A stretch of 64,000 nt of DNA from a virus. Taxonomy: Duplodnaviria > Caudoviricetes. Where the stretch lies: the IMG/VR virus record IMGVR_UViG_3300028886_000058, positions 60,602 to 124,601 of that record, one strand, 5' to 3'. Below the pieces are notes generated by a model. The model did not search any database. It worked only from the letters and a program-made list of their open reading frames with translations, and had not been told where the DNA came from. Made by a program: the position numbers and the translations under genes. Shown one piece after another: positions 13,801 through 60,878 of this stretch (position 1 is the stretch's first letter; every line of letters starts with the position of its first letter).

Positions 13801-16800
13801 ATCTGCGTTAACAATGCCTAGCATTGTATCACGTAATCCAAGCTTCATTCTTCCAACAGCACTATTAGGATCTATTTCTCCATTAGCCGTCTTAAGAATT
13901 TCATCCCAGTTATATCCTTCGTTTATGTCGTACCCGTACACATTCTTCGCAATAAAACGAGCAAGATTTTGAGATCGCATACTGCCACTCATACTTGCAG
14001 AAGGAAGATTTATACCGAAGAAATTCTTTTTCCTGAGTTCTTCAGGATCAATGTTTCCAAACTCGTCTCTGGATTTATCTACCATTCTATACCATTCACT
14101 GAATGGTTTATATTTTCCAATAATAGATTGTTGTTGGCTACTTGTGTTTCTACCTTCGCCTTTTTTACCTTCTGTTGAGTTTGCATTGTATTGTCTATCA
14201 GCATCGATCAATGCAATTGCTATCTCTGAATCTGGTGTCATTTGAAACGCATTTCGAACTGTTGCGTTAGGCGTTCCCATCGAAGACGATTGCAAAGCAT
14301 AGTCAGACATCCATACTGCCGCGTTCTGTGCACCCTTTTTAGTTCTAAAATCAGTAGAAAAACTGTTTCCATGTTCTCTGAAGCGCCTTAAAACATTGTC
14401 TCTTTGCTTAAGTTGTTCTTCGGAAAGATTTCCACTTTCATATAATTTTTTATTATTCTTTACAGTAGCAGTAACTATTTTGTCCATTACTTTTGCAATT
14501 GATGCTTTTTTCTCTTCGTTCGTAGCAAGTTCAATAATCTCCATTACGTCGCCGTCGAAATCAGCGCCTTGTAAAAGCTGCATCAATGGAGATGTAGTTG
14601 AGATATATAAACCATACGGATCTAATCCTATAGATTCTGCGAATTTTGAAATAGCATTATCGCCTTTCGCATTCATCACAGCTTGAACAGATTGTCCAGT
14701 TGCTGGGTATCTGCCAAGACCTAATTTGCTTGCAAGTGTTTTTTGGAACAAGACTCTATTGTCCCCAAGTGTCAATTCATTGAGTCTATTTTGCACTTTC
14801 TTTGGAAGTTGCTCAAAAGCCGACATAGTTTCGCCATTACGCTTTGTCTGCATATCAGCATTAAACGCATCAATTAACCATGGAGCAGCCATTCCTTTAT
14901 ATGCAGATGCGTTTTCTGGAAGCATAATGTCTCCACGCAACATTCTTGCCATAATTGCTTGGCGGTAATCAGAAATTCTATTTTGAATAGCTTTGCTTCC
15001 AAAAAGTTCTGGATGCTTAGCAAGCAAATCGTGTGTTTCACCTTCGGCAAATAAATGATTCATTGCATAATCGTAGTTACCGACATTTTTATAATGTTCG
15101 ATAAAAGATCTTGCAAACAACATGCTATCTGATTTATCCATTGAAAGTGTTTGCGCTAACTGTCCAGATATCCATCTTGTTTTACCGTTTGCGTCGCTGT
15201 AAAGTTTATTAGCATATATTCCTTTTTGAATATCTTTTTGAACTTCTTTTGTTATTTCTTCATTTGTCATTCCTGCGAAACGAGCGTTTGCATTTTTCAA
15301 GTCCGCAGCGTTAACAATCATATCAACGTCTTTGCCAATCTTGATGCGTTTACCAATCTTAATTTCCTTACCTTTATCATCAAGACGAACATTTCCATTT
15401 TCATCTAATAAAGCTTCTTTTTCTGCGTCAGATCCAGTATACGACGAAAGATAAAGTTCGCCACCGTAAGCTTCTATAAGTTTCTCAATATCTACAGCAG
15501 AAAGTGCAGACTTAATACCATGTGCACGACCTTGGAAACCTTTCTGTACAAATCTGTTAGAAATAATACTAGCACCGTTTAGTCCAGCGCCGCCATTTCC
15601 TTTTGTAGTGTCTTCAAGATCAACAACAACAATGTTTTGAGGCATTTCAGACCCAAATAATTTTTGAATGCTTTTGCCTGGCGTTGCGTTTTTATTTCTA
15701 TATTCCATTGCAGCAGCATATGTTTTCCAATCAGAAAAATCTGTCATTCCTAATCCAGCTGAAAAATATGTAGGATCTTCTTTGTTTATTTTGTCAAAGA
15801 TGCTTTTCCTAACAAATTCAGCTCCCATTTTAGGATTTATTCTGGATAAGACATATCTTTCATTCGCATCGTTCTTTCCTTTGCCGGAAATACCATGTTG
15901 AAACACATCAGCGTATTGATTAATTAAAGCTTTTCTTTCCGCTGCTGGTAAATTTGGATCACCAAGACGCGGATCAACCTCAAGATAAATTACATCGTCT
16001 GAATACGCATTATGCTTTTTGATACCGCCTTTGCTATTACGCATAATAGTATTAAGATGCATACTTTCGTCAACTGCAATGTGATGATAGTCTTTGTAAT
16101 TATCATATGTTTTTCTATCGTTCCAATTTCTATTGTTTTTTATATCATCTAAGTTATAAAAAGCAACTTCATAACTATTCGGAACAGGAGAATAATTAAT
16201 CTTTCCTGCTGAATACATTACGTTTTGCTTGTTTCTTCTTCCGCTATTTATCTTATTATAATCTTGTTGGGAATATCTTTCTGCTTCAAACCATCCATAT
16301 TCATCACTTAACCTTCTTGCGGCAGACATTCCACCCATAAATCTTTTGTTTGATTTGCGAGCTATTTTATCCCAGACGGCAGGATCATTAACGTCTGTGA
16401 TGCCGTACATTCCCATACCCTTTGCTGAATTCACAAGATCATCATATAAATAAGCGCCCATTGACTTGACCATGCCTCTGGACACGTTCTTCTTGACAAA
16501 GAGTTCACCATTTTTTCTTTGTACGATTTTAGCTGCTTCAGCAGCGTCAGCTGCAAACTGGTTATTCATCAACAAAGAATATAATGCTTGAGTTTCTTTA
16601 GCCGTTAATGATTGCGAATTTGCTTTTAATGCTTTTGCAAAATCAGGACTTGAGACATTTGCTGTACCAGTATTTATTCTTTTAAAACCTGTTGGAAGCA
16701 TATCCTGAAAACTGTCAAAAAGATGTTTTGCAGATCCTGTGCCAGTTGCTATTCTATTCATGAACGAAGCACGTTGAGTTTGACCTACACCTTTAAGAAT

Positions 16801-17373
16801 TGCCAGTCGGAAAATATCATCAACGTTACCAGAAGTATCATTTCCTAGTAATGCAGAACGCATTGCTTTGTATTTTTGTGTCGCTTTTATAGAAGCTAGG
16901 ATTTGATCATCAGATGCCAAAGAACCGGTTTGTCTATAAATTTTAGTCGCATCTCTTGCCATTCCCATTAACTGAGGCATTAACGACTTCATTTGCTTTT
17001 GAGTATATGCTGTTGTTTGAGAGCCTATCTGCGATGTCAATTTCTGGATGGTTTGCACATCAGAAATAACGGCAGACAAACTTCTTGCCAAATTATTGAA
17101 CTCTGTTGTTTTAATATCCATTTGATATGAATCAAGTTTTCCAGCTTTTATTTGATCATTTATCAAAGACATATTGTGAAGAGTATTTGTGACGTTTTGA
17201 GATGCTTCATCAAATTGAGCACCAGTTTCTGGCAAAATAGATTCCGCATTCTTTTTTGTTTCTTTAATTGTTTTATTAAGTCTTTCACCCGCTGTAACAA
17301 GAGAGTTAAAATTCTCAACCGAATTACCAAAATCAATTTCAAAAGAAATTACACTTTGATTCTTTTCTGGCAT
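1855..17373 (-). CDS. Giant tape measure protein (5172 aa) with N-terminal RNA polymerase-like and PD-(D/E)XK nuclease-like domains
   Basis: TP901-type TMP core at about 9950-10830 (LYRQGLSD...ALGDSAATTAAEIGKGMQKA...SGTQVGTALQTVFTRM), long coiled coils and C-terminal GGLVDYTGPAWVDG. Also carries GRYP and GADFDGD motifs (14548-14712) and FSPS...GYFDLL...GDLK...QQLLYA motifs (about 12730-13356). Confidence 0.9.
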   Translation of the reverse strand: MPEKNQSVISFEIDFGNSVENFNSLVTAGERLNKTIKETKKNAESILPETGAQFDEASQNVTNTLHNMSLINDQIKAGKLDSYQMDIKTTEFNNLARSLSAVISDVQTIQKLTSQIGSQTTAYTQKQMKSLMPQLMGMARDATKIYRQTGSLASDDQILASIKATQKYKAMRSALLGNDTSGNVDDIFRLAILKGVGQTQRASFMNRIATGTGSAKHLFDSFQDMLPTGFKRINTGTANVSSPDFAKALKANSQSLTAKETQALYSLLMNNQFAADAAEAAKIVQRKNGELFVKKNVSRGMVKSMGAYLYDDLVNSAKGMGMYGITDVNDPAVWDKIARKSNKRFMGGMSAARRLSDEYGWFEAERYSQQDYNKINSGRRNKQNVMYSAGKINYSPVPNSYEVAFYNLDDIKNNRNWNDRKTYDNYKDYHHIAVDESMHLNTIMRNSKGGIKKHNAYSDDVIYLEVDPRLGDPNLPAAERKALINQYADVFQHGISGKGKNDANERYVLSRINPKMGAEFVRKSIFDKINKEDPTYFSAGLGMTDFSDWKTYAAAMEYRNKNATPGKSIQKLFGSEMPQNIVVVDLEDTTKGNGGAGLNGASIISNRFVQKGFQGRAHGIKSALSAVDIEKLIEAYGGELYLSSYTGSDAEKEALLDENGNVRLDDKGKEIKIGKRIKIGKDVDMIVNAADLKNANARFAGMTNEEITKEVQKDIQKGIYANKLYSDANGKTRWISGQLAQTLSMDKSDSMLFARSFIEHYKNVGNYDYAMNHLFAEGETHDLLAKHPELFGSKAIQNRISDYRQAIMARMLRGDIMLPENASAYKGMAAPWLIDAFNADMQTKRNGETMSAFEQLPKKVQNRLNELTLGDNRVLFQKTLASKLGLGRYPATGQSVQAVMNAKGDNAISKFAESIGLDPYGLYISTTSPLMQLLQGADFDGDVMEIIELATNEEKKASIAKVMDKIVTATVKNNKKLYESGNLSEEQLKQRDNVLRRFREHGNSFSTDFRTKKGAQNAAVWMSDYALQSSSMGTPNATVRNAFQMTPDSEIAIALIDADRQYNANSTEGKKGEGRNTSSQQQSIIGKYKPFSEWYRMVDKSRDEFGNIDPEELRKKNFFGINLPSASMSGSMRSQNLARFIAKNVYGYDINEGYNWDEILKTANGEIDPNSAVGRMKLGLRDTMLGIVNADYLAPSDVMVAQLLQLKARATEEEEKRVAQERQNGLLKGTDLRRSDAAIAKSRLASQGGSVIDNLVSYALTQNSSILGANRDLFGQLNQIGLTNLIGHTDLSGYVQGEVLSNNALKQEAEAKRLLERNDTLSQIATFDQETRAKKLDQLQFSPSLFASLMKNPTAWAEHYLGGKEQDVTPYTHLGWATHEAVEGFMRKRMARALEENPTLMTEDELAKAAQEAVGDFEKYFDDNVGKKGLSKAEVKKLKNTDSYKNIKNYLGNSLVNLFPESEYEVVAVEGATSPGEKNSPLTFNLGKKINKNEKGEEEDVTSKGYFDLLVRNRKTGQYSIGDLKNYPHATAHDRAMWQMQQLLYASAIPGYLESKGLAAGGLEGIHIVEPIQNRLSQINSSPEAIQKNLEKAQEGTRLIQTLAENGFQMDQVLAVSKALDDMFGHSGFSEIANTLQQEQNRVEHMQAQVGSNTGEGVGAALVMHDEYNKAMQTVSGINSFIWKNDASKQGLRGNAWLRNYEQLAMQQGTIYDLENAGMFIQADMLRDQVDRARSGLDAILPDASVKNLQDAYDLLHNINTEEVASKKANSKVEEFKNLTAQIEAASDAYEVLKSKIESNETNAKKKKAELKGAETEEEKIRLQNEIAEIEAQNEIFIPKRKEAAALQNKLNKEKSKYLKKNEKDVWDELNQSRDYLDDLASGEKTSNVTSISDEMTSYIKSVKQLKANAKLYAKEFGIDEESDEYANYMKSLDKMISISSMKAYGDNIIDKSFADFESRKARIAGNVSSLRLSTDEQINIAAHEQTEKIKQEKASIQKRYGKTKLSAAQQERLDSLLSYYDQYNEDDYIEQLRAENDIREQRDSLRIKQSIRQMDQMKRHGLGTRNGFLVRALDRRDSALSQWENKQQSINEDLTKKREQLNSYIKSGDTSSDKYKNTKKEVEELEAASLEAGKAIEQLSDPMATAMAITSQFGDVVGRLATRLGRQLFQKALQETKRFVKEFDASMNEIQAITLKSDEDMTGIRSQTISKALGLRTSVSNVAGVEAALYRQGLSDTEVSSRTESIIKFATVTKLNVTEATKIITTALQNDLVPSAEAAMDALVALGDSAATTAAEIGKGMQKAAAAAKVAGVSYSELTALLTIGTSDTQLSGTQVGTALQTVFTRMRRLSLSKWTSDQNGEATTASDAEAALQSVGIDLWDDKTLGKMRSSYEVLSDLSKVWQNLSDAQKNIVMNAMAGTRQTNVFATLMEGMSEDNGATLDKYLGLAENSSGITQTKYEVAMQSLSASMNELKSSWDAVVESFVNGGVVTGVLDGISGFLQMISNNNGIEHGFSVIAGGISAITAATAALALSGGKLAPITTLIMLVAGLAGGALSEGLFAGLNFQSEKEKFNKYKESLLTSNEESKAIRDESYDSKQNVIDEVTRLGKAYNDLKDSQDSVAKSQAENNLTKGLYDLKNAFPEVSASILNAIKDLSNWENAVKSASETGKKYLKENTRQTVQEAVDYEAKTSQQTYENLLYEESFTPQRISNLKTGISSWIKSKYVPNESSLYAIMSGMESGSYTYSDYKEANDRYNIYKDKTPEEIIRKFNTESAANKDNQSRVNALVSLYSENKDFKDYIDIMYGTDPVAIALKNKKENKISNEDATSFWQNVVTGLMNQEMQENLDIAKRQIDLNFAQNMVKDFPIESLANASDVYDSEFLEKTLKNYIVKNVVDQETNEILPEYLIQEGAKKGLLSTEAITPLISRVFTGFLNSNNPSAYINRFVEENAPEDAWSYFVNGKGFTTEDEAKAFVRTNGLEYTSIKNANGNVAYQTADRLISAKIQQANANNLQTSIASILNGQPISTDAAMLLAQEITGSQYQGESDEEYDKRLQKAYLSSLSRYRIKGISEYESIDELKSAYASAGLDSVLANAIFDTPEALLGWLGNDINIVKSGLENAVTGKATNASISSSWGEIINLLSSQPNLIEGYRNSDGYKSFQTYFGDNADNILNALETGTYVGSEYENLVRRTLAEKGIAFGTGKQYTNSQAASLAKKVLGYDSLTEAETGLTQWTEDEWSAAKSISGLEKYMQMDLFQRRSQEGVNLKREIDVQIAVTGVSELESANKVLEGTAALVEGLQKGGEFAIKAKLEFENTLYNNAQQAALFRNGTAEEQLNAMMSYTGWSKERIQNNREEAIKLTEQRIAEEDQKTDESIRQAALAELNDFYGTTGNEYRYQYDESTGTIGFASDNMAQYGTFFSVPSYIQERYEKILADYNKPSSSTVDRSALLADTTRKYSDSELANARMQLLNGVLTKDTDYDLYSAAVSSLGTYGQQYQWAIENGQTPSEELRQLAFNENNEALRVAQEQESLEKAKLSSTSAGGAFNYQQLQYQQQNKGAIAANEIYNSLSNGSIKSFVDLANAINDTDVQNWTDLLNSSEELRKKFNDIGVKADENGNIDFSDVEASGHEASEVLLMLAQAAASASESFNNITEVLTSGETYDRALSFLQGDIADQEAGYEALSQITGNTRYSNYVRNSLIDFQNGVGLNLPEGAYFENGSWFLDDGNMTERLATFNPNENLSDLDQLYANTIVNNAANGVSGLTNSQRYQGLQQIINSNDISAIRNNDRIGSFEAYTSGIEGFDTWAAVAEAVQEAGIELDDFNETNERYDEILKKSGKTSDEWNKAQKNITKSLRDARKAMHDDSSSIQEQTSAFKNLRSELSKVAKNQYYTDQFKKGKRDKDTLSAVKEMTGFNLSDKELKSGKFNDAILKALEENEASDIAGLQDFANNYIDDLSDVLGEYINGETLTIPGGPTVNLEGGSWNVSMEDIVEGVGSAMSEEQAKLIALLQSMGVDAHYEVTDDGTHVSGKVVIDSVKGTGSHGGGGGGGGGGGKSGLDKLLEKQKHDLAALQHEQKMLEIDEIHYEKMNDYDNYLSTVDKEINLQSRLEAQYQKSIEELKNYRSGLSKYSDDWWKATEQLYSYEEELNNIKNVLDDLEGKKITIVEIRQENEEKPATQRATILQKQAQNYQLAEEFGKYESTQNDILSQYKEDIKKNNDDIKEYEDLLTKYKENSKNWLNVRDHIWQLQAENADLENQFLQDTIALNEARLGNIATQLERNSMDAQHNINNFESYGNAYQMLHMYDEYRDTVRGIKAENEELYKYYQEAANSARAQMAQLEEDGWSETESWYNAKEALYSYDEMLHQLDVDKIERDQAIAQSYVDQARYQVEDAVKPLQAQLQMAQLQGEAYKKESNNEGYLQMLREQAELQEQIAIEQEAQRDSLQEMLDTAIGNGEIEEYSDAWKIVTEGIWELEQGSKSASNAIIDLKNEIEQVSFQNIVDAFSVIDDLNQHQIKLVQYDETKFQNLGELTNYGRALEVEQGLHNERTSNIENQLEILRAFYDTLDSSSPIYKQVRAEIYKLEEARKSEINTVEQLTEKIRKNQEAIIKAHTDVENAIDKEIRNRIQTEKNMLNATVTMENTIINVIKKNYQDEWALIKKTIQKQKEALNEQKALLNERIKAKKDAMNQEDKMEELSRLKQQLALIQADQSRTKDAKELSKKIEEIERDLAWNIADEQAAAQNKLYEDQIKALDEFVSTEEENLNERLSHYDTFRDKVTELLSGTFDDFVNFMAQDDEEYKNASEERRKQLEQGWEDTWHVMKHELQTYWDEVEGYGSSKESFMDYMLGSDSYAMASEAGKKAIEMNLDYMYDRMIAADKDDKYELYDTHEILDKIDDMQDWTYKVEWDSADSDFGNLKDYFDAIIGGPHKDLYTDFMSQFSEYEGIGKKDEPKKKKSSSSSSSSSSSSSPSGYANYYATAFGLKSDNTTLLAGGGWKSSKNAAKDAAISEFAKKGGVQRQTGNIYQEDKNGTVNAGGRKAKNVGTFLNGGLVDYTGPAWVDGTKTKPEAFLDSTDTALLRAMLDEFTYIKTSPYMTHLDESAFGKGGINVGDVNVNLYEARLESDADYDEVARRVGKAFTKELQKDGFNLAAYAW

Positions 17374-48499: not shown

Positions 48500-48886
48500 A
48501 TGCAGAAAATTATCATTTGTGGCAATCTTACTGCCGATCCGATTATTAATGAACGGGAATATGTGGTTAAAGATACGGCAGAAATTAAAAAGACAAAGGT
48601 TGCTAATTTTACTGTGGCTGTTGACAGTGGCTATGGTGAAAGGAAAACTACACAGTTCTTCAGGGTAAATGCATGGCGCGGACTTGGCGAAACTTGTGCA
48701 AAGTATCTTGAGAAGGGTCGTCAGGTTATGGTTGAAGGCGTTGTCTCTCTTAACAATTACGTTGACAAGAACAATAACCTTCGTGCTGTAATGGAAATTC
48801 GTGCAAATGAAGTACAGTTTCTTGGCAGCAAGGGCGTTGAGACTCCTGAAGAACTTCCTCCTGAAGAAGAGGAAATGCTTTATTAA
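48500..48886 (+). CDS. ssb: Single-stranded DNA-binding protein 2
   Basis: IIICGNLTADP, FTVAVD, FFRVNAW, YLEKGRQVMVEG and EVQFL motifs. Confidence 0.92.
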   Translation: MQKIIICGNLTADPIINEREYVVKDTAEIKKTKVANFTVAVDSGYGERKTTQFFRVNAWRGLGETCAKYLEKGRQVMVEGVVSLNNYVDKNNNLRAVMEIRANEVQFLGSKGVETPEELPPEEEEMLY

Positions 48887-49924: not shown

Positions 49925-50497
49925 ATGTTTATGAGTAAACCTGGATGTAAACCATATAAATGGGTTAAAGCACCAGCAGAACATCCGTATGCAACAAAGA
50001 AAGGCTTAATTCAACAACATAGACTTGTTGCAGAAACAATGGTCGATAGATACCTAAAACCAGAAGAAGTAGTACATCATATAGACGGAAACACATTAAA
50101 TAACGATGTTTCAAACTTGATGATATTCGCTACAGCAAAAGAACATAACGCTTTTCATCTTGGGGGAGCTGCTTGGAGTAATGACTTAATTATTTGGCAT
50201 TCATCAAATGTTTTACATGTAAAAAAATGTGATTATTGCGGAAAGTTATATATTCCAAAAGACTCAGCATTGTCAAAAATAGAAGAATCAAAATACTGTT
50301 CTAAAAAATGTATGGATAAATCAAAATTTATCAAGACACAAAATAAAATACCAGAAATAATTAATTTAATATATAAAAACAATGGCAACTTTTCGAAAAC
50401 AGCTAAAATCATAGGTATAACATCGACTGGACTATCAAAAATTTTAAAAACACATGGAGAAAAATATCACTCAAAAGATTATAAAAATATCTTTTAA
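49925..50497 (+). CDS. HNH homing endonuclease
   Basis: QHRLVAE...EEVVHHIDGNTLNNDVSNL...EHNAFH, then CDYC/YCSKKC Zn finger and a C-terminal HTH. Confidence 0.9.
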   Translation: MFMSKPGCKPYKWVKAPAEHPYATKKGLIQQHRLVAETMVDRYLKPEEVVHHIDGNTLNNDVSNLMIFATAKEHNAFHLGGAAWSNDLIIWHSSNVLHVKKCDYCGKLYIPKDSALSKIEESKYCSKKCMDKSKFIKTQNKIPEIINLIYKNNGNFSKTAKIIGITSTGLSKILKTHGEKYHSKDYKNIF

Positions 50498-50569: not shown

Positions 50570-50640
50570 CGAGGATGTAGTGTAACGGTAACACGCGTCG
50601 CTTGGGACGACGAGTAGCAGTTCGACTCTGACATCTTCGA
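50570..50640 (+). tRNA. tRNA-Pro(TGG), atypical acceptor/T-stem geometry
   Basis: CGAGGATG/CATCTTCG acceptor, GTGT/ACAC D stem, CGTCG-CTTGGGA-CGACG anticodon arm and TTCGACT T loop with a weak T stem. Confidence 0.75.
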
Positions 50641-50832
50641 CTTTAAACCGAGTGTATGGGACGAGGCTACACATTCCCATTCGAAACGCACAAAAACTCT
50701 CGCCCAGTGTAGGGGTAGGTGAACGGTAACGCGTAGCGCTACCGACACGAAGAAGAGAGTTGCTGGGTTTATATTCCTGCGGTTTGCCGGCTTTGTTATT
50801 ATTTTATGACTTACTGATAATGGAGAAAACGT

Positions 50833-51357
50833 ATGAAAACAAATTATGTTGCTTCTTGGCGTCCAGGTGCAGATAAGGTTTATAGCAAAAATATTGATGT
50901 TCAAAAGGTAGCTCAAGAAATGCTTGCTATTAAAGGTGAAAATAGTCTTGAAACAACTACTGCTGAAGAGATTGTTAATATGGCAAGAGACGAAAATACA
51001 GAGAGCCATAAAATTTTTGAGTGGGATGATTCTATAGCGGCTGAAAAATATAGAGTTACTCAAGCTCGTTACTTAATGCACGATGTGCACATTATATGGA
51101 CAAAGACTGGCAAAAAGAAAGAAAATAAAACAGTTGTTCCTGTAAGAATGTTTTATAACTTGAAAGGCGAACTTGGATATCATCCAACACCAGTTATTAT
51201 GAAGAACGATGATCTTCATAAGAAGCTTTTAATGACCGCAAGAGCTGAACTTGAAGCTTTTAAAAAGAAGTATGAAATACTTTCAGAATTAAAGCCATTA
51301 CTTGTTGAAATTGATAAAGTTATTTATGAATTAAAGATATTTGAAGAAACTGCCTAA
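50833..51357 (+). CDS. Hypothetical helical protein, partner of the RAMP-like gene
   Basis: TAEEIVNMARDENTESHKIFEWDDSIAAEKYRVTQARYL motif; ends 6 nt before the pentamer array. Confidence 0.75.
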   Translation: MKTNYVASWRPGADKVYSKNIDVQKVAQEMLAIKGENSLETTTAEEIVNMARDENTESHKIFEWDDSIAAEKYRVTQARYLMHDVHIIWTKTGKKKENKTVVPVRMFYNLKGELGYHPTPVIMKNDDLHKKLLMTARAELEAFKKKYEILSELKPLLVEIDKVIYELKIFEETA

Positions 51358-51363
51358 TAATCA

Positions 51364-51964
51364 TGCGGTTAGTACAATTAGGAGCTTATTACTTCTTTTG
51401 CATAGCTTATAATAGAATAGAAAAGGACAGCAAATAGATAAAACACTATAAAATATAATAAGCTTCTTATTGTGCTAACCGCACAGAACCTTACAATAAA
51501 ACAGAAAAGCAAACAATAGTTCCATGTAAAATACGTTAGCCTAATACAGAACACGAAAGCATATCTACCGGTCTGAATAAGGATGCAATGCATCCTGTAA
51601 GTTAATTTATGATATTATAAGTTAAATTACTATATAATATGATTTTATACCACAGTATACTATATAACATTGCATCTTTATTCAGGCTGGTAGTGATACC
51701 AGTTGTAGGTCATGACAGCAAAATATAGGATAGTTAAGAAAACCTTATGATTGGACAGGACACAATAATGTGTACCAACTATGTGGTTGGTACAATTGGA
51801 GACTTGTGAAAGTCTTTCAGCATATGACAAACTAGGACACTTTAGGCTAGAAAAACATATGACACAATAAAATACGACATAAGTCTTCAATTGTGCTAAT
51901 CGCACAACTATATTGCAATATAGCAAAACAAAGGTCAACCTAGGAAAAAACAACACATAATATT
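51364..51964 (+). ncRNA. Array of three long hairpins and six 5-nt-periodic (NNA-NN) tracts; putative guide RNA array
   Basis: Stems 51364-51391/51456-51483, 51565-51590/51668-51693 and 51782-51808/51878-51904. Eleven of the 12 non-Watson-Crick positions are G-U on the + strand. Pentamer tracts lie inside and between the hairpins. Confidence 0.85.
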
Positions 51965-51980
51965 TAAAGGAGTAAAAGAA

Positions 51981-52661
51981 ATGAAAAAGAAAGAAATCAA
52001 AGCAAACAATGAAGTAGAACTGATGAACATTCAAGCAAACATTAAGCATATGATTGTCACTGTTGAAGGTGATGGCGATCTTATTCTTAATAAAATGAAT
52101 GCTCGAAATGAACGCTGGCTTCTTGGTGGACGAGATAGCGGTGTTGAAGAACGTTCAAACGTGTGGGAAGATATCATTACGTCTATTCATTGGTATAAAC
52201 CACTTGAATGCGAAGACACTTATAAAGAATGTAATGAAGAAATGATGATGTCTCTTCTTAAGGAAAATAAACCGTGTATTTCTGCGTTTGCATTTAAGAA
52301 AAGCTTTGGAGATGCAACAGTACGGAACGAAATTGATACATATGCAACGAAGATTAATACAGCTGTTAATGTAGTTGCTGTTGGAGGACTTATTCCGATT
52401 GAATTCGGTGGTTGGAGCGTAGAAAAACGGCTGATGAGCCCGAAGAAAGGCAAGCCGCTTACTGTGCATCTTAATCATTTTCATAATTGGAGTGCTAAGA
52501 TTCAAATTGATTATATGGATCATGTATTTAGCCGTGATCAAATTCTGAATATTATCAATCTGGCTGGCTTTGGTCTTGGCATTGGAAGTGGACGAACTTC
52601 TGGATATGGGCGTTATCACATTACTAACGTAGATATGATTGAAGAAGCAGAAGCAGCATAA
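51981..52661 (+). CDS. Solo RAMP / Cas7-like RNA-binding protein
   Basis: N-terminal strand (MIVTVEGDGDLILN), PCISAFAFKKSF helix, WSAKIQIDY strand and C-terminal glycine-rich loop AGFGLGIGSGRTSGYGRY, as in RAMP RRM folds. No other cas genes or CRISPR array in the window. Confidence 0.75.
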   Translation: MKKKEIKANNEVELMNIQANIKHMIVTVEGDGDLILNKMNARNERWLLGGRDSGVEERSNVWEDIITSIHWYKPLECEDTYKECNEEMMMSLLKENKPCISAFAFKKSFGDATVRNEIDTYATKINTAVNVVAVGGLIPIEFGGWSVEKRLMSPKKGKPLTVHLNHFHNWSAKIQIDYMDHVFSRDQILNIINLAGFGLGIGSGRTSGYGRYHITNVDMIEEAEAA

Positions 52662-52710
52662 AAATAATTGATGAAAAACATCTGACAGCTCGGAAAGACG
52701 AGCATTTTAT

Positions 52711-52796
52711 CGGCTAGTGGCGCAATAGGCAGATTCGCAGGAGACTTAAAATCTCCCGGAGGTAACTCCATGTGGGTTCGAGTCCCACCTAGCCGA
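52711..52796 (+). tRNA. tRNA-Leu(TAA)
   Basis: CGGCTAG/CTAGCCG acceptor, GGAGA-CTTAAAA-TCTCC anticodon arm, long variable arm and GTGGG-TTCGAGT-CCCAC T arm. Confidence 0.9.
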
Positions 52797-52818
52797 CTTA
52801 TTTTTAGGAGGATCAAAT

Positions 52819-53043
52819 ATGATTGAATATATTGTTCCGGTAGATGAAAACCAACTAGAAAAAGAAGACTATGAATGGTTTAAAGAAAATTCACATGGAA
52901 GACTGATAAGATGTAAAGAGTGTAAGTACGCATTCTTTAAAGAAGGTCTTGTTCTTGAGAATCATGTTTTCTGTACAAAGGCTGGAACAGAACGAGGTAA
53001 CGCGGTGAAACCGAATGACTGGTTTTGCGCAGACGGGAGATAA
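52819..53043 (+). CDS. Zn-ribbon family Z1 protein (RCKxC...WFCADG)
   Basis: RCKEC...DWFCADGR. Confidence 0.65.
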   Translation: MIEYIVPVDENQLEKEDYEWFKENSHGRLIRCKECKYAFFKEGLVLENHVFCTKAGTERGNAVKPNDWFCADGR

Positions 53044-53045
53044 GG

Positions 53046-53300
53046 ATGACACATGAAATAAAATTGCATGAGACTTTTGCCGAAGCCGTGTTAAATGGTG
53101 ATAAAACGTTTGAAGTGCGATTTAATGATCGTGGTTACAGAATTGGAGACTATGTAAAATTTATAGTACTTAGCGATCTAAATAATGAAATATTAGATCA
53201 TCCATTGAATAATAACAAATACATAATTACATACCTTTTATCTGGTTGGGGAATTAAAGATGGATATGTAATATTTAGTATAAAGAAGGTAGAAGAATGA
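53046..53300 (+). CDS. DUF3850 / ASCH-PUA-like protein
   Basis: HEIKL...FAEAVLNGDKTFEVRFNDRGYRIGD...ITYL...GYVIFSI. Confidence 0.8.
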   Translation: MTHEIKLHETFAEAVLNGDKTFEVRFNDRGYRIGDYVKFIVLSDLNNEILDHPLNNNKYIITYLLSGWGIKDGYVIFSIKKVEE

Positions 53301-53614
53301 AAGTAACTAAATGGACATATTGGAATAATAATAAATATAAAGATATTAATGAACTTACAGACGATGAATTTAAAGAAGTAGAAGAAACTATTATCAAAGA
53401 AATAAAAGATAAAGGATATAAATTCTGCGGATCTGCTCATCAGAACATTGAAACTGGATGCCCAGTAATTGACGATAAATATATCTACTGCGTTTCGATG
53501 AGAAAATGGGGAGACATTATGGCAAGAGCTTACGACCTTCCAAACGAAGATGGACTGGCATATGTATTATGGTCATGGGCTGTTCCTGATGGAGAAACTT
53601 CTGTATATCCATAA
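53297..53614 (+). CDS. Hypothetical protein
   Basis: GSAHQ...PV...SMRKWGDIMA. Confidence 0.6.
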   Translation: MKVTKWTYWNNNKYKDINELTDDEFKEVEETIIKEIKDKGYKFCGSAHQNIETGCPVIDDKYIYCVSMRKWGDIMARAYDLPNEDGLAYVLWSWAVPDGETSVYP

Positions 53615-53738
53615 GATCAATATTTATTTACAAAAACCATATTAATGAACAAAAATAATAACATTATAGTTTAAAAATGAACTAAAAAGTAAAAATTATA
53701 AACACGGACAATAATATTACGATGTAGAGACGAAAACA

Positions 53739-53948
53739 ATGAATGACATACAAGAACTTGCGAATATAGCAGGAATGACTGCAAAAGCAATTGAAAGCGG
53801 TAAATTTGTTTGGGTTGTTCGATGCAAAAACTGTATCTTTGGAAAGCCCGAAGAAGACAATAAAACAAACAAGAAATGGGTCTACTGCTATCATTATAAG
53901 GAAAACCGACCAGAAGAATGGTTTTGTGCAGACGGAAAACGAAAGTAG
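53739..53948 (+). CDS. Zn-ribbon family Z1 protein
   Basis: RCKNC...EWFCADGKR. Confidence 0.65.
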   Translation: MNDIQELANIAGMTAKAIESGKFVWVVRCKNCIFGKPEEDNKTNKKWVYCYHYKENRPEEWFCADGKRK

Positions 53949-54361
53949 AGCGTCATTTCGGCACACGAATACAAGCCGTGTGTGGCACGTATGATGATGG
54001 AGGGATACTGGCCAACACAGCCGGAAGAGGGGGTAGGGCTTCCGGATTTTATAAGGAGGATATTGTTATGAAAAGTAAGCTGTTTGAAGTTATTATCATA
54101 GCACTTATTCTCGCCTTTTGTGCTAGCGCATGGATTTATGTATTAAATTACTTGTGAGGTAAAAATGAAGATTGTGCATTTTAACAAAATGTCAGTTCGT
54201 GTTCCGTTGAAAAACGACGAGAATGTTAAGGACGTTGAGAATAGATTGATTGAAGCAGTTGACTCTATAGGCGACGGTGTTGCCATGTACTTTAGTATTG
54301 AAATCGAAGATGAAGAATCATCATTCAATGAATGATAAATGTGTTGTCTTTAAAAACTTAA

Positions 54362-54434
54362 TGGGGTGTAGCCAAGACGGTTAAGGCACAGGACTTTGAC
54401 TCCTGCATCGTAGGTTCGAGCCCTACCACCCCAG
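54362..54434 (+). tRNA. tRNA-Gln(TTG)
   Basis: TGGGGTG/CACCCCA acceptor, CAGGA-CTTTGAC-TCCTG anticodon arm and GTAGG-TTCGAGC-CCTAC T arm. Confidence 0.93.
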
Positions 54435-54500
54435 CTTATTTTAACAGAACTCTGCAGGTTTTAAGTTTTGCAGAATCCTATTGAAAAGGAGCAGTTTGCA

Positions 54501-54854
54501 ATGTTAATAGAAAACCAAAAACCAGTTTGGAATGTATACATAGAAGACTACAACAAAAGAGAAATAAAAGTATTCAATGTATTTAATCATTATACGTTCT
54601 TTGAAAATTGCAAAAAAGAATTTAGAAGATATAGCAGACATAAAGATATTGAAAAACTGGAACATGAAATTAAAGGTTGGGCAATGTATTGTTTCTGGTC
54701 GAAGTGTGAATATGAAATTATATTGACTTCATGGCCTGAAAAAAAGGATTTTAAAGATATGAAGATTGATATTTACGATCAGCTTAATCTTAATTGGGAT
54801 TCGTTCTTTAAGTATGTCATGGAACATAAAGCCGATTTTTTAAGAAAAGAATAA
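54501..54854 (+). CDS. Hypothetical protein
   Basis: WNVY...FNVFNH...MYCFWSKCEYEI...KIDIYDQL. Confidence 0.65.
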   Translation: MLIENQKPVWNVYIEDYNKREIKVFNVFNHYTFFENCKKEFRRYSRHKDIEKLEHEIKGWAMYCFWSKCEYEIILTSWPEKKDFKDMKIDIYDQLNLNWDSFFKYVMEHKADFLRKE

Positions 54855-54857
54855 AAA

Positions 54858-54974
54858 TATGCGGTGGCGAAATAGGTAGACGCTTAGAACGTAAGGTGAA
54901 CATAAGGTCGAAGCTCGCATTGATCAGCGACTCCGCAGTACCATCATGTAAGGTGCAAATCCTTACCCGCATTT
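54858..54974 (+). ncRNA. tRNA-like RNA with replaced anticodon region
   Basis: ATGCGG/CCGCAT acceptor, Leu-type D arm TGGCGAAATAGGTAGACGC, 6-bp T arm GTAAGG-TGCAAAT-CCTTAC and an interior of about 64 nt with no canonical anticodon arm. Confidence 0.7.
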
Positions 54975-55156
54975 ATATGTTAGGTCTGCCGTGTCTGCGG
55001 ACATAGAGCAGTTGTGCAAGGCATGAGTGCCGAAAACATAATCCTCAAATTAATACTGTTGCTCGTCCCCGGGGCATAGAGTTACAGTAGCTTACGACAT
55101 TCCGATGCACATAGAGGATTTGGTGTCAAAACCTTTGGGAATGATTCGTGAGCATA

Positions 55157-55353
55157 GATACGGTGGCGGAATAGATTCCATCATTCCTGCGGGTAGTAGA
55201 TAAGGGCGTGGTTACCTATTATAATCACCTGAAAAGACAGGAGCGCAGGTCACGGTAAAGTAGACGCTATCAATATTCAGTTCGTGGCCCGCAGTAATGG
55301 GCGAGAGACCGAAACTGTAAGGTTATGTGGGGTGCAAATCCCCACCCGTATTA
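55157..55353 (+). ncRNA. tRNA-like RNA with insertions in the D loop and anticodon region
   Basis: GATACGG/CCGTATT acceptor, TGGCGGAATAG-[about 85 nt]-GTAGACGC and T arm GTGGGG-TGCAAAT-CCCCAC. Confidence 0.65.
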
Positions 55354-55372
55354 TTATGAAAGGATGATTATT

Positions 55373-55591
55373 ATGGACGAAGAATATGCCATTTCCTATG
55401 ATACACTTATTCATCCGGATTTGGAAGCTATTAAAAAGCGTGATGCTTTTCTGTCCGATAAAAACGGCAAGAAATTACGGGAAATGATAGACCAGATTCA
55501 CTTAATGGAAGAGATTTTAGATTGTAATAACTGTGAATATCCCAATGAATGTGAAAATTGCGCCCGCGCAATAGAAGATAGAGAAAGGTGA
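55373..55591 (+). CDS. Small Cys-rich hypothetical protein
   Basis: CNNC...CENC. Confidence 0.5.
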   Translation: MDEEYAISYDTLIHPDLEAIKKRDAFLSDKNGKKLREMIDQIHLMEEILDCNNCEYPNECENCARAIEDRER

Positions 55592-55600
55592 TAAAAAACA

Positions 55601-55942
55601 ATGACAGATCATACTCTTAATCTAATTTACGCTATTAAAAAGAGCGGTAAATCATGGAATCAAGCAGTTAGTGAATATATGTCTGCATATTCTGGTTCTC
55701 CCATTGAAAGATATGATGAGTATAGTCTTAATCATATTTTAAGAGAAGCATATTGCGATTATATATCTACTTGTGATAATCCCGCGGTAGAGGCACATAA
55801 ATTGTTAGAAATGATGGATAGTTATCCAATGTATTCGCGCGCCCATCATTTGGCAAATTGTATGGGATTGGCGCAAGTAAAAGATAAAGGAAAGTTCGTT
55901 AATGGCTTTAGAGAATATAATAATGAAATTAAGGATGGATAA
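55601..55942 (+). CDS. Hypothetical protein
   Basis: 113-aa ORF with SD. Confidence 0.6.
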   Translation: MTDHTLNLIYAIKKSGKSWNQAVSEYMSAYSGSPIERYDEYSLNHILREAYCDYISTCDNPAVEAHKLLEMMDSYPMYSRAHHLANCMGLAQVKDKGKFVNGFREYNNEIKDG

Positions 55943-55948
55943 AATAGG

Positions 55949-56212
55949 ATGCTTGCAGTCAGACTTGGAAAATTGCTGAAAGAGCAAGAAGAACAAATAA
56001 AAAGCCGTGATGAATCACTTGAAAAAGCATGGGAAGAAATCAAATGGCTTCGGGGAATGCTAAAAGAGCAGGAAACAGTAAAACCGATAGTAATGGATCA
56101 TATAGTTTTTGGAACAAATAGAAAATGTTCAAAATGTAATCAGGCACTTTTTCCTGCTGGAAAATACTGCCCACATTGCGGACAGGCGGTGAAGTGGGAT
56201 GAAGGTTGCTGA
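55949..56212 (+). CDS. Zn-ribbon family Z2 protein (LLKEQ...CxxC...YCPxCG)
   Basis: CSKC...YCPHCGQAVKW. Confidence 0.65.
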   Translation: MLAVRLGKLLKEQEEQIKSRDESLEKAWEEIKWLRGMLKEQETVKPIVMDHIVFGTNRKCSKCNQALFPAGKYCPHCGQAVKWDEGC

Positions 56213-56373
56213 ATTTGAAAAATGCTTTATTGGGATTCCGATGAAGGACGGGGAAACCCGTGAAGAAATTGAGGATAGGTTTATATCCGCATTGGAGTCG
56301 GTCAACGAGGATTGCGTTGCGACATACACGCTGAAAATCACAGAATACGATGATTAAAAGGTCGGTGAAGTGA

Positions 56374-56586
56374 ATGAGGCTGTTTAAGAAACGCAAAAGA
56401 AAACACTACAATTTGAGAGAAGAACTTGCAAAGTGGGTTGAAAAAACTATCGGTGCTGAATATGTAGAAGAAGCGCTCGATAAGTATGACAAAATAAACA
56501 GTGGTATTCCGATTGGTGGTATGGCTGAAACAGTTGCGTTTGTCGGTATGGTTGAAACTGTAAAAGCTGAAGTAGAAGGTCGGTGA
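56374..56586 (+). CDS. Hypothetical protein
   Basis: 70-aa ORF bounded by AAGGTCGGTGAA junction repeats. Confidence 0.55.
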   Translation: MRLFKKRKRKHYNLREELAKWVEKTIGAEYVEEALDKYDKINSGIPIGGMAETVAFVGMVETVKAEVEGR

Positions 56587-56931
56587 AATGACAATGGAAC
56601 AAATCATAGAAATGTTAGCACATGTGGAAATGTGCGTAACAGGAATGACAATATGCGTAGTTTTGATAATGGTTGCCACGCTTTTAACAGCAATTAATTC
56701 TTTTTTCAAGTAACTTATTAAAGTAGACAATAAAGTCGGTGAAGCGAATGAATGAACTTATTGATGTTCTTAACTGGATTCACAGAGATTTGCTGGTTAT
56801 TGCCACTATTCTGATTTGTTTTGTGCTGTTTAAGGATTGCCACGGTTATAGTAATTCTGGAATAGTTGACGAATTAAAAAACATCAAATCGATCATTCAG
56901 CACAAGAAATAAGAAGGTCGGTGAAGTTATA

Positions 56932-57288
56932 ATGGGACTGACTGAAAGGCATTGGTTTGAAGATGAAGAGCCGGAATTAACAGATCGACAATTAGAAGAT
57001 ATAGTATATGAAAACAAAAAGGCGTATGACAATGGTTATGTAAAAGGCTTCCATGATGCTAAAACACTTGAGGAATATTTTGTTGAACTTGGAGTAAAAA
57101 TAGGGTTTTTGACACCGGAAAAAGCAGAACAACTATTAAAAGAACATCCACAAATAATCCGATGCAAGGATTGCAAGCACGGGAAGAGCAGGAAAAATGC
57201 TAAAGGCGAAGACATGATTGATTGTTTGCTTGCGGATAATTGGTTAAAGTCTCCTGATTGGTTCTGTGCTGACGGAAAACACAAATGA
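56932..57288 (+). CDS. Zn-ribbon family Z1 protein
   Basis: LLKEH...RCKDC...DWFCADGKH. Confidence 0.65.
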   Translation: MGLTERHWFEDEEPELTDRQLEDIVYENKKAYDNGYVKGFHDAKTLEEYFVELGVKIGFLTPEKAEQLLKEHPQIIRCKDCKHGKSRKNAKGEDMIDCLLADNWLKSPDWFCADGKHK

Positions 57289-57304
57289 ATAACGGGGTGA
57301 TGGG

Positions 57305-57595
57305 ATGGACAGGGAAAAGGTAATTAAAGGACTTGAAATTTGCACAAGCCCAGGAACAAAGGGATGTGTGTATGATATGTATGAATCAGCAATTGAATGT
57401 CCATATGCCCATCATGGGTGCAGAGTGCAAATGGAAAACGACGCTCTTGCTCTGTTGAAAGAGCAAGGAAAAACAGGACATTGGATATACAAAAAATATG
57501 ATGATATGTTCATGTGTTCATGTTGCAAGAAGTATAGCATTCGTAATAACTATCCGTATTGTCATTGGTGCGGCGCAAAGATGAAAGGTCGGTGA
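57305..57595 (+). CDS. Zn-ribbon family Z2 protein
   Basis: DREKVIKGLEIC...LLKEQ...CSCC...YCHWCGAKM. Confidence 0.65.
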   Translation: MDREKVIKGLEICTSPGTKGCVYDMYESAIECPYAHHGCRVQMENDALALLKEQGKTGHWIYKKYDDMFMCSCCKKYSIRNNYPYCHWCGAKMKGR

Positions 57596-57600
57596 AGTAA

Positions 57601-57882
57601 TTGGACAGAAAGAACGTTATGAAAGGGCTTGAATGTTGTTCTGATGTTGGTGGGAAACATTGTTATGAAGGTAAATGTCCGTATGCTTCAATGTCTGGAC
57701 CGTGCAGAGAACAACTTGCACAGGATGCCCTTGAACTGTTAAAAGAGCAGGAAGCAGTTGAACCTATCCCGCCAACAGACGAATCAGAAATGTGGAGATG
57801 CGGAAACTGTCATCATCAAATCTTTAGATGTAGACATCAACGGTTCTGTGAGAAGTGTGGAAGACAGGTGAAATGGGAATGA
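57601..57882 (+). CDS. Zn-ribbon family Z2 protein
   Basis: DRKNVMKGLECC...LLKEQ...CGNC...FCEKCGRQVKW. Confidence 0.65.
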   Translation: MDRKNVMKGLECCSDVGGKHCYEGKCPYASMSGPCREQLAQDALELLKEQEAVEPIPPTDESEMWRCGNCHHQIFRCRHQRFCEKCGRQVKWE

Positions 57883-58121
57883 ATCCGTGGAGATTAAGAC
57901 CGATAACGGATAAGCAAAAAAATATATTGACGAAATGCAGAACTATAGCCCATATCCGTTGCCAAAGTTTGAAGGGCAAACAAGAGGAGAAGCTGCTGAT
58001 TACATCGACAAATATGGAAAGCTTGCACACGAAAACGAATGGGCAATTGAACATGGATATAATTGATAGAAGGTCAGTGAAATTGGCGTTAGGTTATCAG
58101 ATAGGAAGAGGAAGGTAATAA

Positions 58122-58433
58122 ATGAAGCACGATATTGAAAAGACCATTAAAGGTCTATATGATATCAGCGGCTGGATTACAGGACGACTAGGTTATGAGC
58201 AGGCAAAGAACTTTCTAAAGACAATTGATAATGCCGTTGAATTGCTAAAAGATCAGATTGTTTCCGATGAAATTCACGAAACAGCAAAACAGTTTCGCAG
58301 AACAATTATCCTGTGTAAAGATTGTATGCATCGTGATCCGGAAGATAACAAATGTGATTGCGGGCATGATATCCAATGGCAATTGCCACGAAAGGACGAT
58401 TGGTTCTGCGCCGATGGAAAACACAGAGATTAA
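58122..58433 (+). CDS. Zn-ribbon family Z1 protein
   Basis: LLKDQ...LCKDC...DWFCADGKH. Confidence 0.65.
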   Translation: MKHDIEKTIKGLYDISGWITGRLGYEQAKNFLKTIDNAVELLKDQIVSDEIHETAKQFRRTIILCKDCMHRDPEDNKCDCGHDIQWQLPRKDDWFCADGKHRD

Positions 58434-58875
58434 AGTGCAACAATAACTTTAGGAGTAAAAAACGATGGACGAGAAAAAAGCCAGTTTGCTGACAAATCCA
58501 TATGGAGAGACAAAAAGCGAGTTTATTGAAAAGTATAAGAGCATTGAAAACATTGCCGAAATTTGCTGGTACTTTGGAGTAAGGCCGGAGAAATTACAGG
58601 ATGAACTGAAGATATTACTTAAAGACAGCGTAAATGAAATGAATAAATAAAACGCTAATGGGGTGATGAAATGGCAGACACAATAACTGTAATGTCATGG
58701 CTTGAAGGTTTGGCACAGGACGATTGGAGGATGTTCCACTCTGACAGCGAGGTGCAAGAGATCGCACGGTCTGCCATTAAACTGCTGAAAGAGCAGACAG
58801 ACGAGATTAAAGAACTGCGGTCAATAGTTGAGTTTTGGAAAGAGAAAGCATTACGCACTTAAAGGAGAAAACAAA

Positions 58876-59355
58876 ATGATTAAAGTAAAACAGCATACTG
58901 AAGGGGACAGTAGAGTATCAAAAACAATACCAACTTTTCGTGATTTTCATACGGCAAATGTTGACCATATTGATGATGTTAAGCATCTATCAGTGTTTTT
59001 TGCCGAAGAGTTGAAAAGAAGAATACTAAGTCATGATTGGACAAAAATAACGGAACCTTACGAAAGTATGTTTTATCGTGATTTATGTGCTGTGCTTGAA
59101 GGACGAATGGATTTTTTTGATGGTGAGTGGTCAAATCTTCATTACAACGAATTGGAAAGACATCACCTTAAAAGACATTGCCCGGAAGACGTAGATATGT
59201 TTGATGTAATAGAAATGCTATGCGATTGTGTAGCTGCTGGCATGGCAAGATCAGGGAATGTGTATGATGTTGATATTCCTGCTGAAGTGCTGACTAAAGC
59301 AGTTGGAAACACAGTAAAAGTCTTGGAATCACAGATTGAAGTAATAGAGAAGTAA
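58876..59355 (+). CDS. HD-superfamily phosphohydrolase-like protein (DUF5662-like)
   Basis: HIDDV...SHDWTK...HY...RHH...EMLCD motifs. Confidence 0.65.
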   Translation: MIKVKQHTEGDSRVSKTIPTFRDFHTANVDHIDDVKHLSVFFAEELKRRILSHDWTKITEPYESMFYRDLCAVLEGRMDFFDGEWSNLHYNELERHHLKRHCPEDVDMFDVIEMLCDCVAAGMARSGNVYDVDIPAEVLTKAVGNTVKVLESQIEVIEK

Positions 59356-59440
59356 TGCGTTAAAGGCAACAATTTACTGCGTATTTTCTCCATGAAATTG
59401 TGTTTTACACAATTTGAAGATGAAAATAACTACAAATTAT

Positions 59441-59512
<72 letters not shown>

Positions 59513-59976
59513 CTACAGGGGTTCCCGTGCGGTGTGGGAACTTAATGTTGTCCGCTGTTGATGCTTGCGCAGGCTAAATACAGAACCAATCCCTGTTCTC
59601 TTCTTTCTTTTCTCGGCGGACGCGAAAGAAGAATCCATTATGGTTGTATTTGCATGGAGTACAACTGAAAATCTAATCCAGTGCGCAAACACGGTGTGTG
59701 GTTCTCTATGATTGAAACGAGCAATTTATGAGGCCTTACGTAAATTAGTCGCGACAATAGCACTTAATTGGACGTTCGATTCGTTCAGCCGTATAGCTAT
59801 GCTCCGCTTGGCATAGCAGTGATTCGCGTAGCACCTTATCAAGCATAACAGGGTGGTTCCCAACTCCGAAGTTACAGCACGGATTCATAGTAAGTTATAG
59901 TTTTATAGCTAACCATTATATATAATTCTATAACACTAAGAAGCGTTAGTAAGACTGGTTAGTAGGAGTATTATTA

Positions 59977-60047
59977 CGGGATGTGGTGTAGCGGTAGCGC
60001 ACCTGGCTTATATCCAGTAAGTGGGAGTTCGACTCTCTCCATCCCGA
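59977..60047 (+). tRNA. tRNA with TAT anticodon (Ile, reads AUA)
   Basis: CGGGATG/CATCCCG acceptor, CTGG-CTTATAT-CCAG anticodon arm and GGGAG-TTCGACT-CTCTC T arm. Confidence 0.8.
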
Positions 60048-60269
60048 CATCGTTGCTTCGTTCGAATCGAACCGGGACTACTTTCGCCGTCGCAAGCTCC
60101 GGCGATACCGAGAAAACGCGCTATCTTGCGCTACGCATTTTCAACTTTCCGCTTATCCATATTGGGTAAGCTTTATGCGCTTGCGTGTAAGCATTAATAT
60201 CAAGCTCACCACTTGATGGCGTAAAGATCATCATCTAAAGAAAAAATGATTAAGGAGTGTGATTAAAAG

Positions 60270-60878
60270 ATGATCAAGGTGTTTATGACTACTACTGCTG
60301 GACGGAAGAGCGATCTTTTCGATGAGGGAACTACTATTCGTGAGATCTTCGACCATTTCGATGTTGACTATTCTGTTGCGACAAATTGTATCGATGGTAC
60401 CAAGATCGATCCCGCTGGGATGAATAAGACCCTTCGTGAGTGGGGCGTTGACAAGGAATGCCGTCTGTCTTCCATCGTTAAGATTGATAACGCGGCCCAT
60501 GTCGACATTTCTGGCGCTTCTGCTGTTCTTGTTTCCGATGTAAAGCTGGAAGACTGGAAGCGTGTAGAAAAGTTTGCTCCGGAAATTCTTAAAATTGTCG
60601 ACGAAGACGATGATCCTCTGTTCCTGGTGAAAACTTGCTGTGGTGGTGGGTCAATTAATAAGTATGGCGTATGCTTTGGCGCTCATACAAACGAGGGTGG
60701 ACTTGCAACTGTGACTGTTCTTCTGGACGAAGAAGTAGAAGACAAGCTTGAGGCTGTCAAAGAGATTATGGGTTCTGCTCTGCTTGATCTGAACAGCATT
60801 GAAAAGGAAATTCCTGATGTGCTGAAGGAGATTGCAGATAAGGAAGCGGAGATCGAAAAGCTGATTATTGCTAAGTGA
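60270..60878 (+). CDS. Ubiquitin-like (beta-grasp) protein with a C-terminal extension
   Basis: Residues 1-75 show a beta-grasp pattern (IKVFMTT...TTIREIF...IDG...KTLREWGV...RLSSIVKIDNA); context next to E2/JAB/E1. Confidence 0.7.
   Translation: MIKVFMTTTAGRKSDLFDEGTTIREIFDHFDVDYSVATNCIDGTKIDPAGMNKTLREWGVDKECRLSSIVKIDNAAHVDISGASAVLVSDVKLEDWKRVEKFAPEILKIVDEDDDPLFLVKTCCGGGSINKYGVCFGAHTNEGGLATVTVLLDEEVEDKLEAVKEIMGSALLDLNSIEKEIPDVLKEIADKEAEIEKLIIAK

Follow-up and report, generated by a model that had tools for sequence, protein, structure and literature searches.

The locus described here raises the question of which gene, if any, is read by a run of short repeats standing directly in front of a small RAMP gene in a phage of Clostridia. 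The window, that is the whole stretch of DNA that was analysed, comprises 64,000 nucleotides of a Caudoviricetes genome (IMG/VR record IMGVR_UViG_3300028886_000058, positions 60,602 to 124,601), and all positions given below are counted from its first letter. An intergenic block of 620 nt (51358-51980) contains about 70 pentamers arranged in 6-7 tracts; in the last of these, tract T6, the two final bases of successive pentamers, taken as the first two positions of successive codons, spell a Walker A motif of the helicase/restriction-enzyme type. The answer proposed here, with reasonable rather than high confidence, is that T6 is one guide RNA (vrRNA) of a phage-encoded system of the VIPR type, which reads motif I of SF2 ResIII/HsdR genes located outside the phage.

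VIPR (Viral Interference Programmable Repeat) systems were described in 2026, and the tested example is the type II system of Escherichia phage SUSP1 (bioRxiv 10.64898/2026.04.26.720920, 10.64898/2026.04.26.720927, 10.64898/2026.10.15.759431). A lone ancestral RAMP protein, Vipr, usually accompanied by one accessory gene, vap, binds the vrRNAs, each a run of 9-16 pentamers in which GGY is constant and NN varies; the NN dinucleotides form pairs with double-stranded DNA, and one target base in three, usually the wobble position of a codon, is left unread, a rule termed "1-nt skip" (bioRxiv 10.64898/2026.04.26.720920). Targets can lie on either strand, are PAM-free and undergo transcriptional repression, and the natural ones are mostly competing phages, satellites and prophages (bioRxiv 10.64898/2026.04.26.720920). 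Cryo-EM of the ribonucleoprotein revealed one protomer per repeat, with GGY hidden and NN presented (2026 VIPR preprints). The published cut-off for a match is at least 80% of the NN units. The reference locus of SUSP1 was found at KT454805 29167-29226, where GGT-NN units adjoin a 195-aa gene ending in GVGDWRPRFGRF.

In the window, the array lies between two genes of the same strand, and its tracts alternate with three long hairpins (Table 1): the loops hold T1, T3 and T5, while the linkers hold T2, T4 and T6. Related loci, for example L009 and L008, likewise alternate between tracts in loops and tracts in linkers. Of 70 array units, 69 have A at position 3 and a single one has G at position 2, with positions 4-5 nearly uniform in composition. 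No second cluster with this 5-nt periodicity is present elsewhere in the 124.6-kb phage genome.

Table 1. Positions in the window of the array elements and of the two genes that flank them.
Feature	Position	Strand	Description
174-aa partner gene	50833-51357	+	candidate vap-like accessory; PHROG match phrog_15946
Hairpin H1	51364-51483	+	arms 51364-51391 / 51456-51483, 27 pairs; loop holds imperfect tract T1, about 51397-51456
Tract T2	51476-51565	+	H1-H2 linker; 18 pentamers, one miss; overlaps the 3' arm of H1 with its first two units
Hairpin H2	51565-51693	+	arms 51565-51590 / 51668-51693, 26 pairs
Tract T3a	51597-51641	+	low complexity; in the H2 loop
Tract T3b	51630-51669	+	low complexity; in the H2 loop
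Tract T4	51705-51749	+	H2-H3 linker; 9 pentamers
Hairpin H3	51782-51904	+	arms 51782-51808 / 51878-51904, 27 pairs, 6 of them G-U on the + strand
Tract T5	51817-51881	+	H3 loop; 13 units
Tract T6	51905-51969	+	13 A-H-A/NN pentamers; begins at the base following the H3 3' arm; final units run into the ribosome-binding site of the RAMP gene
226-aa RAMP gene	51981-52661	+	Vipr-like, lone, Cas7-like; C-terminal glycine loop GIGSGRTSGYGRY

The array is predicted to fold strongly (z-score -7.7), with three stems of 26-27 bp. Since the six G-U pairs of H3 work only in RNA of the + strand, the array appears to act as + strand RNA. A DNA-bending array was considered and rejected, since repeats spaced 5 nt apart do not keep phase with the helix, and G-U pairs indicate RNA. 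The arms of H1 are a diverged copy of those of H3, and the sequence of H2 is unrelated to both. The long stems could be sites of processing by RNase III. A search of Rfam assigned the array to no known RNA family and returned five tRNAs as its only matches.

The gene downstream of the array codes for a protein with no Pfam family and no sequence match in the PDB. Its AlphaFold2 model (pLDDT 81) finds its best Foldseek matches in Cmr4 and Csm3 (E 4e-6), which points to a Cas7-like RAMP fold, and the glycine loop is invariant across 29 homologues. The family is large, with more than 2,388 homologous clusters at 90% identity, none of which carries a name. Of 80 IMG/VR loci with a homologue, 77 have pentamer tracts next to the gene, almost only on the same strand; their commonest length is 13 units, and those of the window range from 9 to 18. 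The fixed triplet, determined over 2,363 units of the family, is ACA in 40%, ATA in 20% and AAA in 14%. On the other side of the array, 93 of 97 related loci have a homologue of the 174-aa gene upstream, in the same orientation, at a median distance of 462 nt from the RAMP gene. The structural neighbours of the 174-aa protein in the atlas are viral proteins, including a cluster named DUF4494. Partner gene, RNA array of about 600 nt and lone RAMP gene thus form a conserved module. GTDB genomes that carry the RAMP family are gut and rumen MAGs, mostly Clostridia, and the closest relative of the system there is in an uncultured Ruminococcus MAG (65% identity).

Other genes of the region include one for an HNH endonuclease (49925-50497), located two genes before the module, and, downstream of it, a DUF3850/ASCH RNA-binding-like gene (53025-53300); neither is kept beside the module in relatives. 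Five tRNA genes (Pro-TGG, Leu-TAA, Gln-TTG, Asn-GTT and Ile-TAT) are located in 50570-60048 among small early-type genes, the repeats at 54946-54984 and 55325-55363 are alike, and the opposite strand carries one ORF of 5,172 aa (1855-17373) that includes a poly-glycine run and presumably codes for a giant structural or tail protein.

Several features are shared with VIPR as known from SUSP1. Both systems are phage-borne and combine a lone small RAMP protein bearing a G-loop with one conserved partner gene; both have intergenic arrays of tandem pentamers with a fixed triplet and a free NN, which in the present variant probably also reads codon positions 1-2, and neither has a self-match of at least 80% of the units in the phage's own genome. 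The differences concern both the RNA and the proteins. The triplet is A-H-A in the window, whereas GGY or NNNGG/YNNNG/NNNNG are the forms named in the available text of the VIPR paper, and the D-W-R residues by which SUSP1 Vipr recognizes GGY are missing from the G-loop. The tracts alternate between hairpin loops and linkers, whereas VIPR guides each carry a pseudoknotted 3' tail. The RAMP protein has 226 aa against the 195 aa of SUSP1 Vipr, to which it shows only a weak profile match, confined to 48 C-terminal columns (hhalign E 5e-4, probability 30%). The 174-aa protein is unrelated in sequence to SUSP1 vap1 (BLASTP E 0.93), and the hosts, unlike that of SUSP1, are gut and rumen Clostridia.

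Cores other than GGY are found in non-canonical VIPR-like arrays obtained with a genomic language model, for which the text lists GAC, CAC, WGT and TGH (bioRxiv 10.64898/2026.10.21.760802). The arrays of that paper resemble the present one in the 5-nt period, the non-GGY triplet and the adjoining Vipr-like fold, and differ from it in that an ACA/AHA core does not appear in the text; the paper contains no target analysis (bioRxiv 10.64898/2026.10.21.760802). As non-GGY cores exist in published arrays, A-H-A argues for a variant of VIPR and not for exclusion from it.

Relatedness at the level of fold also extends to the Cas7 backbone of class 1 CRISPR systems (Csm3/Cmr4), in which, as would be the case here, one RAMP protomer binds each RNA repeat and pairing is interrupted periodically. 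Unlike in those systems, neither cas genes nor CRISPR repeats are present near the RAMP gene, the period is 5 instead of 6 nt, two of five guide bases would be used instead of five of six, and the scaffold is sequence-specific. Based on these comparisons, the locus is filed as a putative variant of the VIPR kind, in which most of the defining features are found, the GGY core is not, and protein homology is weak.

Whether the NN dinucleotides of such a variant carry a message can be evaluated from their composition. The NN of 100 unique guides fit best the first two codon positions, in sense, of phage genes (-3.935 bits per NN), while genome dinucleotides (-4.027), the antisense model (-4.16) and the other frame/strand models (-4.12 to -4.27 bits) score lower. 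Tract T5 provides an example in the phage itself: it matches the phage's own ssb gene (PF00436) at 48671-48709, in the region of AWRGLGETCAKYL, in 9 of its 13 units, in sense orientation and in register with the codons, with mismatches at units 3, 10, 12 and 13; none of 1000 shuffled T5 guides reached 9 units anywhere in the phage genome. At 69% this match is below the published cut-off, and so it fits a guide directed at the ssb allele of a rival, with the phage's own gene being spared. The 11-unit T5 pattern had no exact match in IMG/VR and, with up to 3 mismatches, none in four related phage records and one MAG. A pooled skip test over 1.6 Mb, which is underpowered, gave 3 guides at or above 80% versus 1 control with period 3, and 0 with periods 2 and 4.

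These data bear on a different view of the tracts, according to which they serve as serial binding sites for a ring- or filament-forming RNA-binding protein, comparable to those of TRAP (trp RNA-binding attenuation protein), and the NN are meaningless spacers. Triplets with 2-nt spacers in runs of 9-13 do resemble TRAP sites, which are runs of about 11 triplets with 2-nt spacers. However, the RAMP fold of the protein is unrelated to that of TRAP, the spacers have a codon-like composition, T5 matches ssb in frame, the core of T6 has 92 matches versus 0 for its control, and the published VIPR mechanism provides a role for the NN; on these grounds TRAP-like spacer arrays were rejected, as a very improbable explanation. 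The 1-nt-skip wobble code probably holds in the A-H-A variant as well, as judged from NN composition, the T5-ssb match and the T6 core.

Tract T6 reads CAACT ATATT GCAAT ATAGC AAAAC AAAGG TCAAC CTAGG AAAAA ACAAC ACATA ATATT TAAAG. Position 3 is A in 13/13 units, position 2 is never G and positions 4-5 are free. The NN string is CT TT AT GC AC GG AC GG AA AC TA TT AG and, as codon positions 1-2, corresponds to L-[F/L]-[I/M]-A-T-G-T-G-[K/N]-T-[Y/stop]-[F/L]-[S/R]. An earlier note, made from the sequence of the window, had described T6 as 12 pentamers ending at 51964; its transcription and decoding are correct, but the tract counts 13 units and extends to 51969, since the last unit, TAAAG, keeps the register while overlapping the Shine-Dalgarno sequence of the next gene. 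The 2-of-3 code proposed in the same note is the published 1-nt-skip rule, with the wobble position skipped (bioRxiv 10.64898/2026.04.26.720920), and probably applies here.

The position of T6 allows a further explanation. The Shine-Dalgarno region AAAGGAG is at 51966-51972, the start codon of the RAMP gene at 51981, and neither promoter nor terminator was found between the array and the gene. A role as leader or in autoregulation is therefore possible, and T6 might be mainly the 5' leader of the RAMP mRNA, coated by the protein to control its own translation, with the helicase-like string being a relic or having no target. That T6 ends inside the Shine-Dalgarno region, that nothing separates array from gene and that no cognate target was found all fit with such a role. 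On the other side, T6 has the modal length of 13 units and unit statistics equal to those of the other tracts, and seven consecutive dinucleotides spelling ATGTGKT (~16^-7 per position) would be highly improbable unless they were under selection or recently taken from a real gene. T6 as leader above all is therefore regarded as rather improbable.

Among the 97 related loci T6 was found in this phage alone, with no other copy, so that conservation lends no support to its function. Walker-A-like strings are not enriched among 218 guides, where 4 were seen versus about 3 expected. In related loci, the guide at L001:515-574 decodes to the P-loop-like string ...G[KN]G[KN]TVT... and that at L011:2485-2539 to G[RS]G[RS]G[KN]S[FL][FL]....

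The interpretation of T6 as a guide was pursued by searching for genes that it could read. The core formed by units 3-11 has 92 exact loci in IMG/VR, all in frame on MATGTGKTY, while the same units in reversed order have 0 matches there. About 80 of the 92 are type I hsdR genes of the EcoAI family and a few are ResIII helicases of 470-570 aa. Membership of the EcoAI/FtnUII HsdR family (NF046051, cut-off 550 bits) is supported by a full-length match of 1214 bits for the ORF of L098 and by 1005 bits for that of L237, and the matched HsdR proteins display the Pfam domains ResIII, Helicase_C, EcoEI_R_C and HSDR_N. When all 13 units are counted, 76 of the 92 loci reach 10. One of the ResIII helicases, of 524 aa, is encoded at L086:7515-9086 on a 52.8-kb viral contig (IMGVR_UViG_3300031867_004516) and also matches 10 of 13 units.

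Matches extending over the whole tract were absent from the collections searched. The exact 12-unit pattern gave 0 matches in IMG/VR, in 185,579 GTDB species genomes and in JGI metagenomes. Scans anchored on units 1-8, 6-13, 3-11 and 2-11 reached 10/13 units at best (77%), below the 80% cut-off; these collection scans used exact anchors only, and a target mismatched inside the anchor would escape them. With up to 3 base mismatches allowed, the pattern of 13 units had 0 matches in 557 Clostridia genomes (5 MAGs carrying the RAMP family, 151 genomes of one order and 401 of another), and the 9-unit core had none in 61 genomes from the family of the closest Ruminococcus MAG. In the phage's own genome, the 12-unit pattern with up to 3 mismatches was not found, the best match (7/13 units) is at chance level, and no ORF contains a P-loop of the ATGTGKT type.

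The predictions of the earlier note can be compared with these results. The string was said to spell a helicase/restriction Walker A, and the 9-unit core falls precisely on this motif in HsdR/ResIII-type genes; the target was expected to be external to the phage, in agreement with the lack of both an own-genome match and a suitable ORF. The further claim that the guide is aimed at a defence or competitor helicase stands as far as the class of motif is concerned, but no gene matching more than 10 of 13 units was found, and the search of host genomes that had been suggested as a check failed to retrieve the pattern. As to whether natural genes match better than random, the contiguous core does so, whereas the total score does not: in databases so large, 10 of 13 units is about the chance expectation, and it is the contiguous in-frame run on a single motif that, from the sequence data, is not explained by chance. 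Motif I of SF2 helicases/HsdR is, at this level, a well supported target class for T6.

The prevalence of hsdR among the core matches could indicate an anti-restriction function, with T6 steering the Vipr filament to motif I of the type I R-subunit (EcoAI/FtnUII) of the host and silencing the gene, provided that 2-3 mismatched units are tolerated; such tolerance would cover many hsdR alleles. The roughly 80 EcoAI-family genes among the core matches, and the 76 loci with 10 of 13 units, are in favor of this possibility. However, a score of 10 of 13 units falls short of the published cut-off, the 557 Clostridia genomes gave no match even when up to 3 base mismatches were allowed, and none of the 61 genomes of the likely host family contains the core. 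Moreover, a block of transcription imposed after infection would leave in place the restriction enzyme already present in the cell. An anti-restriction guide is considered unlikely on this balance.

The reading preferred here remains that of T6 as a guide of a VIPR-type system, and its mode of action can be outlined by analogy with the GGY-type VIPR. One RAMP protomer would bind each pentamer, hiding the fixed triplet; the exposed NN would pair with one of the two strands of duplex DNA, leaving out every third base; and the bound genes would be silenced at the level of transcription. Because the skipped base would be the codon wobble, a guide of this kind would read a protein motif and not one allele. 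In the case of T6 the motif would be motif I (Walker A) of an SF2 ATPase of the ResIII/HsdR type, that is a hydrophobic strand followed by MATGTGKTY.

As regards the owner of the target, the helicase of a competing mobile element is regarded as a more likely cognate of T6 than a host restriction enzyme. Three considerations speak for the mobile element: the targets published for VIPR belong to rivals; an SSB gene, likewise with a function in replication, is what the adjacent guide T5 reads; and silencing of hsdR after DNA entry would come too late for the enzyme made beforehand. The 524-aa helicase of L086 is a candidate for the kind of rival-phage target that may be involved, and its contig comes from a sample series in common with the VIPR-bearing loci L014 and L019.

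A broader proposal is that T6 is an allele-independent motif guide, by which a Clostridia phage silences either hsdR or the SF2 helicases of its many rivals through binding to the motif I coding DNA, with a few mismatched units being tolerated; at present this seems quite unlikely. If it were true, it would represent RNA-guided anti-defence acting at the level of a protein motif, on an A-H-A scaffold orthogonal to GGY.

The principle of a gapped code is already known from the preprints of April-October 2026. What the present locus would add is that the code of VIPR is not tied to the GGY scaffold, as a very large protein family found in phages of gut and rumen Clostridia uses A-H-A together with a different G-loop. 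The hairpin-punctuated layout of the array is an addition to the known layouts, and the A-H-A system would give an orthogonal pair of protein and scaffold for engineering, as well as a test case, provided by nature, for the reading of the fixed triplet. T6 is one clear case in which an enzyme motif conserved universally is spelled by a guide, and it raises the question of action across alleles.
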